DNA of 16,543 bases. It comes from a virus. Taxonomy: Duplodnaviria > Heunggongvirae > Uroviricota > Caudoviricetes. This document shows positions 1-4,956 of this stretch, in pieces (within the stretch, counting starts at the first letter, position 1; every line of letters starts with the position of its first letter). Made by a program: the position numbers and the translations under genes. The stretch is from IMG/VR virus record IMGVR_UViG_2534682254_000004; one strand, given 5' to 3'. Below the pieces are notes generated by a model. That model saw nothing but the letters and a program-made list of their open reading frames with translations. It made no database searches and was not told the DNA's origin.

Positions 1-722
1 CCATTCATCACGCGCTGGTCAAATCAGGCATCACACCACAGGAAGTGGATGTGGTTGTCACCCTGCCACTGAGCGAATATTTCGACACAAACGCACAGCC
101 GGACATGGCCAACATCAACCGCAAAAAAGCAAACGTCATGCGCCCGGTGGCGTACCAGAACGGAAAAGCATTCACTATCCGTAACGTACGGGTTATGCCT
201 GAATCCATTCCGGCTGGTTTTAAAGCACTGGCTGACATGAGTCCGTTTGAATCCCTGCTGATTGTGGATTTAGGCGGAACCACGCTGGATGTGGCAAAGG
301 TTCAGGGACAACTGGCAGGTATCAGCCAAGTGTTTTGCGATCCACACGTAGGCGTTTCCCTGATGGCCGATGCCGTACTGTCGGTGATGGCCACTAACGG
401 TATGCGCACCAGTCACCACATCGCCAATACCATTATCGAACATCGCCATGATGAAGCCTGGCTGCGCCAGCACATCCACAATGACGCGCATTACGCCAGC
501 CTGATGGCGGTTATTCGTGAAAAGGAAGAAACACTGAAACAACGCGTGATCCGCGCGCTGGCGGTTTTTTCGGGTTACGGGCGGGTGATGGTTGTCGGTG
601 GCGGGGCGGAGATTGTGGCACCCGCTATCCGCGAAGCCTGCGGAGTTAATGCGACTTTCATCGCGGACGGGGTGCCACAATTTGCTCTGGTTAATGGGCT
701 GTACGCAATGAACAAGGAGTAA
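1..722 (+). CDS. parM: ParM/StbA-family actin-like plasmid segregation ATPase, C-terminal ~240 aa (5' end lies upstream of window)
   Basis: Frame is open from the window edge (codons from nt 3: IHHALVKSGITPQEVDVVVTLPL...), so the M at 45 is internal. Translation carries ParM-type motifs (VMPESIPAG, SLLIVDLGGTTLDV, VMVVGGGAE) roughly colinear with plasmid R1 ParM as recalled from memory. Stop at 720-722. Confidence 0.8.
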   Translation, partial: IHHALVKSGITPQEVDVVVTLPLSEYFDTNAQPDMANINRKKANVMRPVAYQNGKAFTIRNVRVMPESIPAGFKALADMSPFESLLIVDLGGTTLDVAKVQGQLAGISQVFCDPHVGVSLMADAVLSVMATNGMRTSHHIANTIIEHRHDEAWLRQHIHNDAHYASLMAVIREKEETLKQRVIRALAVFSGYGRVMVVGGGAEIVAPAIREACGVNATFIADGVPQFALVNGLYAMNKE

Positions 723-726
723 ACCA

Positions 727-1038
727 ATGACGACACCAACCAGAAGAATAAGTTTCTATCTGAAGCCAGCTGCCGTCAAGAACGAAGGAGAAGCATGCGC
801 CTGGCTGGACAGTCTTACACCAGAAGCCCGCAAAAGCGGCCAACGCGTGGCTTTTCTGGCCGGGCTGGCACTTCTGAAGACGAATCCGGCAGAGGCTTAC
901 CGACTGGCCGCATGGGCTGATGATGAGATGTTACCTGTGACACAAATCAGCTCAAAAAAGTTTGAAGCACAGTCTGCACCAGTGGCTAAGATAACCAGCC
1001 AGATGGCTGGGAATATCCGGGCGTTATTTCCTGAGTAA
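727..1038 (+). CDS. parR: ParR/StbB-like partition adaptor (putative centromere-binding protein), 103 aa
   Basis: Starts 5 nt after the parM stop, the classic parM-parR operon arrangement. Small protein with segments resembling R1 ParR as recalled (RRISFYLKP, LDSLTPEARK, RVAFLAGLAL). Assignment rests on context plus weak motif similarity. Confidence 0.55.
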   Translation: MTTPTRRISFYLKPAAVKNEGEACAWLDSLTPEARKSGQRVAFLAGLALLKTNPAEAYRLAAWADDEMLPVTQISSKKFEAQSAPVAKITSQMAGNIRALFPE

Positions 1039-1166
1039 AAGCATCTGCGCGAAAAATGCTCACGTTTATAGAGACAGTATCATTCCATTTGGCACACTTG
1101 CTTCAATAATCGATCTGTTAAACAAATAGATTGTCTATTATCTATCGATTAAAACGATCAATTATC

Positions 1167-1195
1167 TTGACAGTAATGTGCCTTTTTGTAAGATC
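1167..1195 (+). promoter_or_regulatory. Candidate sigma70 promoter (TTGACA-N16-TAAGAT) bracketed by an 11-bp inverted repeat (caattatcttg 1159-1169 / caagataattg 1213-1223)
   Basis: Perfect -35 hexamer TTGACA at 1167-1172 and a -10-like TAAGAT at 1189-1194. The flanking 11-bp inverted repeat is centred on the -10 region, an operator-like layout. Sequence inspection only. Confidence 0.3.
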
Positions 1196-1243
1196 GTTCG
1201 CATTGTGAGCGACAAGATAATTGCGCGGCATTGTCCATGCAAA

Positions 1244-1273
1244 ACGCCCCAATAGCAGCAACTATTGGGGCGT
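1244..1273 (-). terminator. Perfect 12-bp stem / 6-nt loop hairpin (ACGCCCCAATAG-cagcaa-CTATTGGGGCGT), terminator-like only on the minus strand
   Basis: On the plus strand the stem is followed by aaaactcgg (no U-tract); on the minus strand it is followed by UUU(U)G. Could end a leftward antisense or small transcript. Confidence 0.3.
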
Positions 1274-1300
1274 AAAACTCGGTCGGACTCACTTAACCTG

Positions 1301-1385
1301 ATATGCGTGCCTTCCGAAGTAAATCAAAATGTGCGTCGTATATTTTATTGCTTACACGCACCTCTGTAAAGGCACGCATATTTTT
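1301..1385 (+). promoter_or_regulatory. Structured leader: 13-bp long-range inverted repeat (atatgcgtgcctt 1301-1313 / aaggcacgcatat 1369-1381) enclosing an inner hairpin (gtgcgt 1331-1336 / acgcac 1356-1361), followed by T5
   Basis: Sits immediately upstream of the RBS (GAGG 1391-1394) and GTG start (1403) of the small ORF. Candidate attenuator, sRNA or protein-binding site. Confidence 0.3.
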
Positions 1386-1402
1386 CCTATGAGGTAAATA
1401 AA

Positions 1403-1672
1403 GTGCGGGCTAAAACAGGTATTTGCAAGAACCCTCATCGTTATAATCCAACATTTCTGTCTCTCCCTGAATATCAAGGACAAGAAGGTCGGCACAAATG
1501 CGCTGCCTGTGCTTTTGAGCTAGGCATAAAAGATGCGCTTGAAGGACGCGCTATGGCTCAGAATGATTTAGTTTTAGCTAACATTCCGTTTAGTCAGGCT
1601 GGAACTGTAAGGCACAGAGATGCCTATGAAGCATATGTTCGTGGTTGGCGATTAATACACAGCAACAATTGA
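1403..1672 (+). CDS. Hypothetical small protein (89 aa), Cys/His-containing (C8, H12, H31, C33, C36), GTG start
   Basis: ORF with GAGG RBS 8 nt upstream and a strong intrinsic terminator directly downstream. AT-rich codon usage unlike the phage late genes. I do not recognise a family. Confidence 0.5.
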   Translation: MRAKTGICKNPHRYNPTFLSLPEYQGQEGRHKCAACAFELGIKDALEGRAMAQNDLVLANIPFSQAGTVRHRDAYEAYVRGWRLIHSNN

Positions 1673-1680
1673 TACTTTTG

Positions 1681-1706
1681 AAGCGCCGATAAGGCGCTTT
1701 TTTTGT
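1681..1706 (+). terminator. Rho-independent terminator
   Basis: aagcgcc-gataa-ggcgctt (7-bp GC-rich stem, 5-nt loop) followed by TTTTTT, 9 nt after the ORF stop. Confidence 0.8.
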
Positions 1707-1990
1707 TTGCACGATAGTGCACAAGTTTGCACAATTTTTTTGAACGACTTTTTACCCTTCCGGCCCGCATGGCGGCTGGATCCGTCAAGGATCCGTGCGT
1801 GCACAAAAAAACGCGTTTTTTCTGCGCGCAGGTGACGGGGGAACAGCCCGCGTTTCAGGGGGTAAATAGCATCCCCTGAACGATGTCGCAGCGACACAAC
1901 AGAATGGCTGTATTTCTCACGCTGAGCGTGAAAAAGACGTGAGGGCTTTTGATTTGATGGGGTGGCAGATAAGGCCGTCAAAATCGCACT

Positions 1991-2006
1991 GAGGCGGCGA
2001 GAACAT
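1991..2006. other. Candidate cos (cohesive-end) core, GAGGCGGCGAGAACAT
   Basis: About 150 bp outside the portal gene stop, where cos lies in P2-like genomes. Matches about 12 of 16 positions of the P2/186 cohesive-end sequence as I recall it (GGCGAGGCGGGGAAAGCAC). Surrounding DNA is rich in palindromes. Recollection of the reference is not verified. Confidence 0.3.
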
Positions 2007-2158
2007 GCAGTCAGCGCGATGGGATTGCGTAAGAGCCTGACCGTCGATGATGGCAATAAGCTGGAAGGCGTCGTGAAATTATCTGATTGATACAGGAGCT
2101 GGAGAGTCGGGGCATAAATTTTTTATGCCCCGGCGAAGCAGCAGACAAGCGAAGCGCG

Positions 2159-3205
2159 TCAGGATGTGGGCTGGGTGTCTAACAGTGCGTAAGGGTTAAA
2201 GCGGATCACCTCTTCGCCAAGCCAGTCATTGATGTGCTTCATGGCCTCCATGACGGGCATCAGCTCGTTAATTGCGTAAACCCGCGCGGCCTTCTCCACA
2301 TCACCAAACGCACTTTTTTCGCCCGGCATCGCCCCCATCAGTTGCGGCGGAACGCGGTGCGCAGCCAGCACATCATCACGGGATGCCGCCTTAACATTCA
2401 TGAACTCATCTTTTGCGGTGATCTGCTGGAACGGCAAAATTTGCACCCCCTCTTTGCCCCCGTTGGGCGCATGAATGAGCACGTTTTTAAACGCACCACC
2501 ACCACGTGCCCCCTGTAGCGTTTCTTTCAGGGAGTCCATGCTTTCGCGGTTTACCTGCGCTGCACCGATGTAGATGATGCACCCGGCGTGGGATCCGTTG
2601 TCGTAGTACAGTTTTCTGAACATGTCCGCCGAATGAGAAAGGCTGGCCGAGAGTAATGCGCCAAGATATTCCGGCATGCCGTAGATTTCCTGGTTAATAT
2701 CCGGATTCATCAGGTGGCACACTTTGCCAGGGCGAAACTGGAACGCGTCCTTGCCATCCTGCACATACCACCATGATTCAAGATCGCTTCCGCGTCGCAT
2801 GTATTTCGCCAGGGCGTGCCGTAATTTAAGCGGTTCGCCGAGCATATTGCTTCGAAGCTCAAGGAATGCGTTACCGAACACAAACCAGTCCAGCGCCAGC
2901 GCCGAGAAATCCTGCCGGGAAAGCAGCGGGTGCGGGATGTAGCAACCGAGTAATACATTGCGCTTAAAGTAAAGCGCAGACTGATGCCAGGACGTTTGCC
3001 GGGCAGCTCTTGCCAGGCCGTACCAGTCCACCGGGGTTTCATACCACCGCCCGTTATCAGCACAGTACATATTATCCAGCAGGTCATGCCCGATCAGGCG
3101 ATAAGGCCCATCAAATGTGAATGCACTGAGCGACGATTCTTTCCTGAGCGCATCAGCGAGATCAATGCGTGAACTCATGCGCACTTTTTTATTTTTTCTG
3201 CTCAT
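2159..3205 (-). CDS. Q: Portal protein (P2 gpQ-like), 348 aa
   Basis: Size and position match P2 Q (about 344 aa). Downstream partner of the terminase ATPase gene with a TGATG stop/start overlap. Leftward orientation beside cos as in P2. Confidence 0.9.
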   Translation of the reverse strand: MSRKNKKVRMSSRIDLADALRKESSLSAFTFDGPYRLIGHDLLDNMYCADNGRWYETPVDWYGLARAARQTSWHQSALYFKRNVLLGCYIPHPLLSRQDFSALALDWFVFGNAFLELRSNMLGEPLKLRHALAKYMRRGSDLESWWYVQDGKDAFQFRPGKVCHLMNPDINQEIYGMPEYLGALLSASLSHSADMFRKLYYDNGSHAGCIIYIGAAQVNRESMDSLKETLQGARGGGAFKNVLIHAPNGGKEGVQILPFQQITAKDEFMNVKAASRDDVLAAHRVPPQLMGAMPGEKSAFGDVEKAARVYAINELMPVMEAMKHINDWLGEEVIRFNPYALLDTQPTS

Positions 3206-4956
3206 CAGAACTCCATAACCGTGAAACGCTCGTTTTCTCCTTCGCCGCCAATCGGTTCGTTAATGACAGCAAGCATGGTTGCCCACGCAAGGTCGCCGTG
3301 GCTGATCCCCCTCGCGCGGTCCGTTTCGTAAGTGATAAAGCCGCCCGGTGTTTTCACCTTACGCACGGCGTTAAAGGCTGCGACCAGCTCGCGTTCGGCG
3401 CGATCGTATTCCCACCGCCCGGCGCGCATTATTTGCAGCATTTTCAGTACCAGCGACCGTTTTGATGACAGCGTGAAGGTGTACGGAATAGCAGCAGGGA
3501 AAAACCGTTTCACTATCTGATAAACAGCCTCCCCGTTCCCGCCTGTCACATCAATGCCGATGTGTTCCACGTTGTAGCGACACGTGAACTCTTCAATGAC
3601 TCTGGCCTGTTCTTCAAACTCCAGCCCCTGAACGCGTCGCGTCTCCACCGTTCGAAAACGGCCACCAGGAACAGCCGGAGGAACCACCACGGACACAGCG
3701 CCGCTGTCGCCGTTGCCACTGCTGCCGTTTGCGTCATACCCAATCCATACCGGACGATTCCCCATCGGGCGGGGAGCAAAAGGTTTCCAGTCTTTCCAGT
3801 CGTCGTATCCGTCAACACCACAGCCAATCAGGATATTCAGGTTAAATGCCGATTCCCCTTCGCGGACAAACTCACACATATAAAGATTGAGGAACTCGTC
3901 TTCGGTGTTTTCATCACGAATTTCATCAATATCGGTGTGTTTCCAGCCGTGATTAACCACATCTTCCAGCGTGACAATTTGCCGCCACGTCCGGTCAGGG
4001 CAGATAAGCCCGTTATGCAGCGTTTTCCAGTCCACAGAAAAACGCTGGCGTTTATGCGTGGCCTTTTTCTCGTTCCAGCGGTCGCCGTTCCAGTAGGCGT
4101 ATGCCTCGTGCGTTTCGGTGGATGGCGTGGAGAAGTAGGTGCGCCGCAGTCCGCTGAGGGTTGCCATAGCGCCAGCCACCTTGCGCAGTTCAGCAAAGCG
4201 ACAGACCCAGAAGAATTCATCAAAATAAAAATTGCCCGTATAGGACTGTGCCGACGCAGCAGAAGTGCCGAGAAAATGCAGCTCTGCGCCGTTGGAGAGG
4301 ATGATTTTATCGCCCCCTTTCAGCTCCACATCAACTTCAGCCGCGGCCTTCTGAATAATGCTTTTAAACTGGAACGCCTGACGACGCGACGCAGACAAAA
4401 AAATCTGGTTACGCTGGTAAGGTTGCGCCACATCGTCACGCAGCGCCATCAGCAGCGCTTCCTGTGCAAAATACCAGGTCGCCCCAATCTGTCGGGATTT
4501 CAGGATCATCCTGTTACGTATCCCTGCTTCCCTGCAAAGGGTCAGGGAGTCAAACCAGCCCCGCTGATGCCACTCCAGCCTGCTGATGATTTTTTCCCGC
4601 AGTGCGGCAATCTGTTCCGGCGTGAAATGATTTTTGAGTTTTTTCGCCCGGCCTTTCTTTCCTGCGGCCATCACATCCGGCTGGCCATCATGCAGCTTTT
4701 TAAGCTGCCGGGTCAGCAGGTCTATTTCCTTAAAGTCACCGCCTGTTTTATTCTGTTTTTCAGTAAGCTGGATGAGGCGCGCATCGATGGACTGCGTGAC
4801 ACGCTGCACAGGTGGCGTTTCATCCCACTGGTCGCGTTTTTTCCACGCATAAATCGTGTTCGGGTTTATTCCCATCAGACGTGATATTTCTGCGGGCGGA
4901 TAACCCTGCCAGTAAAGTTGCCGCGCACGCTGGCGCACAAAAGCGTCCTGAATCAT
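3205..4956 (-). CDS. P: Terminase ATPase / large subunit (P2 gpP-like), 583 aa
   Basis: Size matches P2 P (about 590 aa). N-terminal HTH-like segment and canonical position upstream of Q, divergent from the O-N-M-L operon. Confidence 0.9.
   Translation of the reverse strand: MIQDAFVRQRARQLYWQGYPPAEISRLMGINPNTIYAWKKRDQWDETPPVQRVTQSIDARLIQLTEKQNKTGGDFKEIDLLTRQLKKLHDGQPDVMAAGKKGRAKKLKNHFTPEQIAALREKIISRLEWHQRGWFDSLTLCREAGIRNRMILKSRQIGATWYFAQEALLMALRDDVAQPYQRNQIFLSASRRQAFQFKSIIQKAAAEVDVELKGGDKIILSNGAELHFLGTSAASAQSYTGNFYFDEFFWVCRFAELRKVAGAMATLSGLRRTYFSTPSTETHEAYAYWNGDRWNEKKATHKRQRFSVDWKTLHNGLICPDRTWRQIVTLEDVVNHGWKHTDIDEIRDENTEDEFLNLYMCEFVREGESAFNLNILIGCGVDGYDDWKDWKPFAPRPMGNRPVWIGYDANGSSGNGDSGAVSVVVPPAVPGGRFRTVETRRVQGLEFEEQARVIEEFTCRYNVEHIGIDVTGGNGEAVYQIVKRFFPAAIPYTFTLSSKRSLVLKMLQIMRAGRWEYDRAERELVAAFNAVRKVKTPGGFITYETDRARGISHGDLAWATMLAVINEPIGGEGENERFTVMEF

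Follow-up and report, generated by a model that had tools for sequence, protein, structure and literature searches.

Roughly a quarter of sequenced Escherichia coli strains carry a prophage-borne actin-like segregation system, and the remaining question is why an integrating phage keeps a plasmid spindle. Here we address this question for IMG/VR virus record IMGVR_UViG_2534682254_000004, a stretch of 16,543 nucleotides (nt) that we call the window. Its first 1038 nt encode a ParM-type actin-like ATPase followed by a ParR-type DNA-binding protein. We suggest, with moderate confidence, that these genes belong to an intact R1-type (type II) ParMRC system, near-fixed in P88-like prophages, that acts on transient extrachromosomal circles of the phage genome. 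Four other explanations were ranked below this one by weight, namely DNA positioning in the lytic cycle, maintenance as a stable phage-plasmid, cargo expressed in the lysogen, and a relic, in that order.

The two genes and the translation start signal of the second are arranged in the window as follows.

1-722, plus strand: 3' part of parM (Pfam, R1 ParM structure match, PHROG family phrog_691 'partition protein', dN/dS)
712-717, plus strand: AAGGAG Shine-Dalgarno sequence for parR, within the end of parM, read from the sequence
727-1038, plus strand: parR (Pfam, pB171 ParR structure profile match, PHROG partition family phrog_2515)

The parM frame is open from window base 3, and the window holds codons 81-319 plus the stop, i.e., 239 of 319 residues, while the true gene start lies 238 nt upstream. 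The full-length gene could be read from the chromosome of E. coli CEC03102 (NZ_AP026112.1), which is 100% identical to window 1-1038 and whose annotated locus we call L003 (window position = L003 position minus 20000). There parM occupies 19763-20722, stop included, and encodes 319 amino acids (aa). The 225-aa protein of a preliminary description of the window is an artefact of the window edge, the listed open reading frame (ORF; 45-722) beginning at an internal GTG at position 45. Against Pfam, window 3-722 matched the ParM C-terminal domain PF21523 (E 3.5e-69) and StbA_N (E 3.2e-37), the latter over profile positions 81-157 only because the ParM N-terminus is cut by the window edge. The parR product, 103 aa long, matched Plasmid_stab_B PF10784 (E 9.8e-24). 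parM ends with its stop codon at 720-722 and parR begins with ATG at 727; parR thus follows parM directly, as had been described, though the gap is 4 nt and not 5 nt. This gap, with the Shine-Dalgarno sequence inside parM, implies that translation of the two genes is probably coupled. The Pfam matches and coordinates bear out a ParM-type ATPase gene followed by a ParR-like gene, both on the plus strand and read toward the cohesive end site, cos. The observation is real and far beyond chance.

Full-length ParM (L003 19763-20719) matched the R1 ParM structures (1mwk and others) over residues 2-316 with E 1.3e-92. Its nucleotide-binding motifs are intact, including phosphate-1 DDGSTNIK, MPESIPAG, phosphate-2 DLGGTTLD and adenosine GGGAE, and an alignment of phage, D6, IncF and IncI1 ParMs has 101 invariant columns. 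The doubt whether the 225-aa protein belongs to the ParM/StbA family can be set aside, since StbA_N, the ParM C-terminal domain and the R1 ParM structure all match, and the plasmid-type, R1-like type II assignment of the cassette stands on the same family and structure matches. The N-terminus of ParR is a basic strand region (RRISFYLKP); helices and a hypervariable linker follow, and the protein closes with a conserved C-terminal tail (NIRALFPE). In alignment with R100-type StbB, IncI1 ParR and D6 StbB, M1, P14, R40, G46, A48 and N96 are invariant; the R100-type StbB is the R1/R100 ParR. The tail pattern N-I-[RQ]-x-[LF]-F-P-E is kept in all phage alleles despite the hypervariable linker, and its Asn is invariant against the R100-type, IncI1 and D6 ParRs; the IncF counterpart of the tail is KKNAMKLIN. 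A profile of phage and plasmid ParRs matched pB171 ParR ('StbB protein', 2jd3) in the PDB with E 2.9e-14 over profile positions 4-89. An AlphaFold2 monomer model of low confidence (pLDDT 59) has helices at 20-61, disorder at 62-84 and a C-terminal helix at 85-100, and a Foldseek search of the PDB with this model returned nothing useful. From sequence, ParR, encoded directly after parM, is predicted to have a ribbon-helix-helix fold, and its C-terminal tail is a candidate docking peptide for ParM filament ends.

The copy in CEC03102 is a complete P2-family prophage, P88-like (Xuanwuvirus), integrated beside btuC and flanked by btuC and by host genes. It carries an integrase, a C repressor, cox and a 946-aa replication endonuclease, gpA, and its genes run in the order integrase, helix-turn-helix (HTH) repressor, early genes, gpA, ParM, ParR, an 89-aa hypothetical protein, Q, P, O, N, M and tail genes. 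parM follows gpA in the same orientation after 76 nt, and the gap holds no plus-strand terminator-like site, which fits co-expression with the early replication operon. The preliminary description had allowed for a phage that ends between parR and Q, with unrelated plasmid DNA upstream; the DNA directly upstream of parM is a P2-type replication gene, gpA, and the phage does not end there. The order gpA-parM-parR was found in all phages inspected, including P88, which are Peduoviridae of the genus Xuanwuvirus. The nearest deposited phages are 520873, 503458, P88, P88_4B11, phiSM of Citrobacter rodentium and others. Downstream lie the portal gene Q (2159-3205, minus strand; PBSX/P2 type) and the large terminase gene P (3205-4956, minus strand; gpP type). 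The P2 cos 19-mer had no match within 3 mismatches, and cos was placed instead from the ends of the linear record NC_049391 (phage P88_4B11), which abut at about window 1752/1753 in the alignment.

1717-1800, no strand: cos-proximal region; the ends of NC_049391 align up to 1752 and from 1753

By this alignment the phage ends would be at about 1752/1753 and cos about 715 bp downstream of the parR stop. Both the position in the gpA-to-cos/Q interval and transcription toward cos are as the preliminary description had them. We take this interval to be the tin/old position of P2.

A type II system also needs a centromere, which had been expected upstream of the window, and candidate repeats were found there. 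Two 39-nt direct repeats lie upstream of parM in L003, 73 bp apart from start to start, each holding a 20-bp palindrome, ACGGGATT-N4-AATCCCGT, with the core GGGATT-N4-AATCCC.

L003 19636-19655 (365-346 nt upstream of window base 1): palindrome 1, within the last codons of gpA
L003 19709-19728 (292-273 nt upstream of window base 1): palindrome 2, ending 34 nt before the parM ATG

Exact ACGGGATT half-sites occur four times within 93 bp, against one other copy in 41 kb. A Hafnia relative, with 75% identity in ParR, differs at 64 positions over some 200 nt of aligned upstream sequence, yet keeps both cores and the 73-bp spacing; the cores are also conserved in Salmonella relatives. We infer that the repeat pair is a candidate parC, outside the window, with the palindromes as predicted ParR-binding sites. 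The divergent relatives for covariation between ParR and its sites come from this one Hafnia lineage because the scan of genome contigs with ParM returned only 3 near-identical loci and the IMG/VR scan kept only loci that are 98-100% identical. No Rfam family exceeded its threshold in window 1-2300 or in the parC region. The Ogr-type late-promoter motif TGT-N12-ACA was found neither upstream of parM nor in the P/O control region used as a control, so this search is uninformative. In the IMG/VR locus L049, a 73-bp deletion upstream of parM leaves one palindrome and alters the gpA 3' end. The deletion would correspond to recombination between the 39-nt repeats, and L049 may represent a naturally occurring form of the candidate centromere with a single site.

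The repeats are part of the par module, not of gpA, because homology restarts at repeat 1 where gpA differs and because prophages without parMR have no palindromes. In the IMG/VR locus L090 the gpA 3' end is a different one, and homology to L003 sets in again precisely at 19622, where repeat 1 begins, and extends as far as the parR stop at 21038. The P88-like prophages without parMR (L016 and L017) diverge about 50 bp before repeat 1, and both palindromes are absent. The mobile unit is a module of 1417 bp, consisting of repeat, core, repeat, parM and parR, with its right boundary at window 1038.

parM is under strong purifying selection: in comparison with its counterparts in other E. coli, in E. 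albertii and Salmonella and in phage records, dN/dS came to 0.03-0.15. Of 91 loci, 88 encode a ParM of 319 aa and 87 a ParR of 103 or 104 aa, and about 96% have intact frames. A non-functional relic, left by recombination with a plasmid long ago and passively carried, would agree with the fact that the cassette can be replaced by other cargo. However, such a relic is scarcely credible given the dN/dS values across the E. coli, E. albertii and Salmonella copies, the intact frames, and the conserved catalytic motifs, ParR strand region and C-terminal tail. ParR itself is dimorphic. The two allele classes, TPEARKSGQRVAF and PASERSRAQRAAF (relatives L004 and L008), are about 54% identical and diverge after codon 18, with an apparent recombination breakpoint near that codon. 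Both classes have the same N-terminal strand region and C-terminal tail, and the adjacent ParMs are about 98% identical. Because of these two classes, many genomes were matched by megablast only over window 1-781.

Of 5426 complete E. coli genomes, 1291 carry the cassette. The corresponding gpA 3' end was found in 1373 genomes, 1289 of which have parC-parM behind it. The earlier view that such a cassette would be uncommon for this phage group is contradicted by these counts and by two published surveys. In a study of the gpA-gpQ locus, the cassette was reported in 'around a fourth of P2-like phages', with speculation on plasmid maintenance and with StbA and Plasmid_stab_B in the tables (Rousset 2022). 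P88 was also flagged in a screen for phage-plasmids, with the same speculation (Pfeifer 2021). RefSeq annotates the genes as 'plasmid segregation protein ParM' and 'plasmid partitioning/stability family protein', and the P88 and phiSM papers contain no analysis of the par genes. The cassette is therefore already annotated and published, and it is ordinary for the phage genus. What is new here is the boundaries of the 1417-bp module, the candidate parC, the purifying selection on parM and the placement of the variable slot between parR and cos. The phage record 500465-2, which seemingly has no parMR, was set aside as a mis-bounded prophage prediction that misses the early region. A 226-kb contig labelled 'Vagococcus sp. 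WN89Y' (NZ_JBQPOM010000071.1) carries a P88-like parMR with a ParM 97% identical, and is most likely enterobacterial contamination or a mislabelled Gram-positive assembly.

The preliminary description had offered a partition cassette borrowed as phage cargo as one of its two readings. This can hold only for the distant past, since a wide identity gap separates the phage ParMs from those of plasmids. A tblastn search of the phage collection with full-length ParM found only the P88-like group (at least 94.7% identity) and the plasmid prophage D6 (47.8%). In PLSDB, six records at least 95% identical are prophage copies, and every other record counted, at least 4994 of them, falls short of 60%, with about 52% as the highest value. 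Because the phage copies are at least 94.7% identical and plasmid ParMs reach at most about 52%, we regard the phage ParM as a distinct, old clade and not as a recent plasmid loan.

The relationship to the plasmid systems is nevertheless close in design. As in R1 ParMRC (the parA locus) and R100 StbAB, the order is centromere (a candidate one in the phage), parM, parR with tight coupling, and the ParRs fall in the same Pfam family. The phage ParM is about 47-53% identical to plasmid ParMs, matches the R1 structure over its whole length and has the same nucleotide-binding motifs. As in R1-type parC, which lies upstream of stbA in locus L020, repeats flank a short core much as iteron blocks flank the promoter. 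Unlike R1 and R100, the phage module sits in an integrating P2-family prophage right after the rolling-circle gene gpA, its ParR has 103 aa instead of 117 aa, and its ParM clade is set apart by the identity gap. In place of about ten direct A/C-rich iterons, the candidate parC has two palindromes in 39-nt repeats, the first of which overlaps the gpA 3' end. The P1-like phage-plasmid D6 (MF356679) has the nearest ParM in any other deposited phage, StbA, which is likewise followed by a StbB-type ParR, and its GenBank record notes 'similar to phage P88 StbA protein'. However, D6 is a 91-kb plasmid prophage without chromosomal integration, and its upstream repeats, TCTCAAATTTATCTCA in three copies, are unrelated to the palindromes of the P88-like phages.

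The other reading of the preliminary description, also suggested in both surveys (Rousset 2022; Pfeifer 2021), is a stable phage-plasmid, i.e., an element regularly kept as a segregating extrachromosomal prophage. This lifestyle is not supported by the genomes, and we consider it quite unlikely. In complete E. coli genomes 1436 of 1438 copies are chromosomal, and the window copy lies beside btuC with integrase, C and cox. Three observations point the other way. PLSDB holds one circular 'plasmid' of 34,461 bp, pZ1323PEC0009-2 (NZ_CP148288.1, L005), that is an entire P88-like genome; the nearest ParM outside the group is that of the plasmid prophage D6; and the P2-like Burkholderia phage KS14 is a proven plasmid prophage (Lynch 2010, PMC3091744). 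However, pZ1323PEC0009-2 also has an integrase, together with repressor and cox, and its integrase/immunity region is chromosomal in 308 of the 308 E. coli genomes that have it. This circle is an exception among the chromosomal copies and may be either an excised replicating circle or a true episome. KS14 combines a P2-family virion module with partition genes, as the P88-like phages do, and is thus a precedent for plasmid maintenance in P2-like phages. Yet it has a type I ParA and a RepB initiator in place of gpA and has no tyrosine integrase, whereas the P88-like phage is integrated and keeps its integrase and gpA, the only annotated replication gene. No plasmid initiator is annotated in the prophage early region, a statement that covers the annotation and not a domain search of every early ORF. 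Thus neither an autonomous replicon in lysogens nor plasmid-type replication and copy control with a dispensable integrase was found. A 26.7-kb Shigella 'plasmid' with the cassette was rejected as an episome, being a linear unplaced contig, and the remaining PLSDB matches are very large records of 228 kb to 1.4 Mb.

Since the phage integrates, we place the substrate of the system in transient extrachromosomal circles. We hypothesize that ParR dimers bind the four GGGATT half-sites in the two palindromes upstream of parM and form a small partition complex. By analogy with R1 parC, this complex probably represses a weak promoter between the palindromes. ATP-bound ParM would polymerize, the conserved C-terminal tail of ParR would capture the filament ends, and the growing filaments would push two circular copies of the phage genome apart. 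These circles could be those formed after infection and cos circularization, before integration, or those present after excision, during rolling-circle replication by gpA, which would give monomeric circles. Each daughter cell would thereby retain a copy, and the phage would gain from fewer abortive lysogens and less loss after excision. More tentatively, and with the balance tipped slightly against it, we propose that P88-like phages have a dual lifestyle, in which a short, actively partitioned episomal phase aids lysogenization or prevents loss after excision.

The closest functional analogue is srpMRC of the SXT/R391 integrative and conjugative elements (ICEs), which has a four-repeat centromere upstream of the motor gene and reduces loss of the excised circle (Carraro 2015, PMC4489591). 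In both cases an actin-type partition system with a small centromere, in the phage a candidate one with four half-sites, is found on a normally integrated element. The two differ in that SrpM and SrpR are only distantly related to R1 ParM and ParR, with no detectable ParR homology for SrpR, and in that the ICE is conjugative and not a phage. The role of srpMRC is demonstrated, whereas that of the P88-like system is a proposed one. If the dual lifestyle is correct, its minimal two-palindrome centromere overlapping the end of gpA would extend the principle of srpMRC from ICEs to tailed phages. Partition of transient circles would also blur the line between integrative prophages and phage-plasmids, and would help to explain efficient lysogenization by the very common P2-like phages.

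Several points weigh against partition of transient circles. A single non-replicating circle gains nothing from partition, so the benefit presupposes replication before integration. The candidate centromere has only two palindromic sites, while R1-type parC has two blocks of direct A/C-rich iterons (L020). A consensus scan of the E. coli sequence between the palindromes returned no sigma-70-like promoter; a candidate read by hand, TGTGCA-16-TATATG, is weak (about 7 of 12 positions), and its Hafnia version, TGAACA-16-TATAAG, is better. Both palindromes score as minus-strand terminator-like hairpins. A pure RNA-hairpin constraint on them is unlikely, since the common natural variants, GGGACT and AATCCT, are not compensatory, as one can pair on the plus strand but not on the minus strand and another the other way round. 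The searchable literature holds no experimental study of parMR in this phage group. Finally, an intact parMR persists in two degraded prophages, which hints at a possible role in the lysogen. In the remnant of E. coli O157:H7 strain 1130 (L004), IS1203 follows parR and the portal-to-tail-fibre genes are gone. In strain EC7518 (L022), a deletion joins a DUF4761 gene to parM and removes gpA and both palindromes, and an HTH plus PIN-domain gene pair follows parR. EC7518 had been considered as a case of divergent parC, having parM without a gpA match, and was rejected as this deletion remnant.

These remnants, which can no longer make phage, are one reason to consider cargo that is expressed in the lysogen, for example to interfere with the partition of incoming ParMRC plasmids or phage-plasmids, or as an unrecognised defense. 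The gpA-Q interval is moreover a defense hotspot (Rousset 2022). However, PADLOC gave zero matches at E <= 0.01 to known anti-phage defense families for ParM, ParR and the 89-aa neighbor. Cross-reaction with plasmid systems is unlikely as well, with ParM at most about 52% identical to plasmid ParMs and palindromes unlike R100-type iterons (L020). The module is also near-fixed while the neighboring slot turns over, which is unlike defense cargo. We hold this explanation to be quite unlikely, a little more so than the phage-plasmid.

A use in the lytic cycle ranks first among the alternatives, though we still find it unlikely. Here ParM and ParR would move or spread replicating genomes for replication or packaging. 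P2-type replication leads to monomeric circles, which are the packaging substrate, and parMR comes immediately after the replication gene gpA, in the same orientation. There is also a parallel in prophage CGP3 of Corynebacterium glutamicum, where the adaptor AlpA binds its own promoter region, AlpC and AlpA are induced early, and the pair acts on circular phage DNA after induction and is needed for efficient phage DNA replication (Donovan 2015, PMC4446434). Both systems pair an actin-like protein with a DNA-binding adaptor in an integrated prophage. However, AlpC is of a different actin-like lineage, the adaptor gene alpA comes first, and the role there is in replication efficiency, not inheritance. 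P2, 186 and most other P2-like phages lack such a system, and about 6% of the prophages with this gpA type have other cargo instead. The P88-like system is furthermore an orthodox plasmid-type ParMRC and not a divergent phage-specific actin.

The preliminary description had placed the cassette in an accessory hotspot. This is right for the location between gpA and cos/Q, but the cassette is not itself the variable element: presence/absence variation does occur and is rare, 1289 of 1373 gpA ends keeping parC-parM. In the 64 related loci compared, the parR stop and a conserved cos-proximal motif lie anywhere between 105 and 3785 bp apart, with 29 length classes. Thus the hypervariable cargo slot is the stretch from parR to cos, and parMR is the stable, gpA-proximal part of the interval. 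Where parMR is replaced, L016 has a Dam methylase and a 565-aa AAA-family ATPase, and L017 has three minus-strand hypothetical genes (269, 112 and 459 aa); these replacement genes are possibly defense cargo. In the window the slot contains the following.

1039-1700, no strand: variable slot, context and not part of the par system
1403-1672, plus strand: 89-aa ORF, function unassigned (phrog_3941), the only cargo gene of the slot in this copy
1680-1700: terminator-like hairpin of the 89-aa ORF (terminator scan)

The 89-aa ORF had no Pfam, NCBIfam or PADLOC match, and its product has three Cys residues, C8, C33 and C36. Megablast homology to 500465-2, which belongs to another genus (Gemsvirus), starts at window 1576, within this ORF. 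The slot also has a plus-strand promoter-like site, TTGACA-16-TAAGAT (1167-1194), a minus-strand one, TTTACA-17-TAAAAT (1370 to 1342), and a perfect hairpin with a 12-bp stem (1244-1273) followed by TTTT on the minus strand. The signals within 1160-1400 could specify a small antisense RNA, some 90-100 nt long, against the 5' leader of the 89-aa ORF; in this region the only Rfam matches, to generic antisense-RNA hairpins, fell below threshold. Beyond cos, a hairpin formed by CGGGGCATAAA and TTTATGCCCCG (2100-2153) lies just 3' of the portal stop, the position expected for the terminator of the Q/P operon. The same segment matched the Rfam family 'gyrA RNA' below threshold (22 bits against a gathering score of 45 bits), which we regard as chance.

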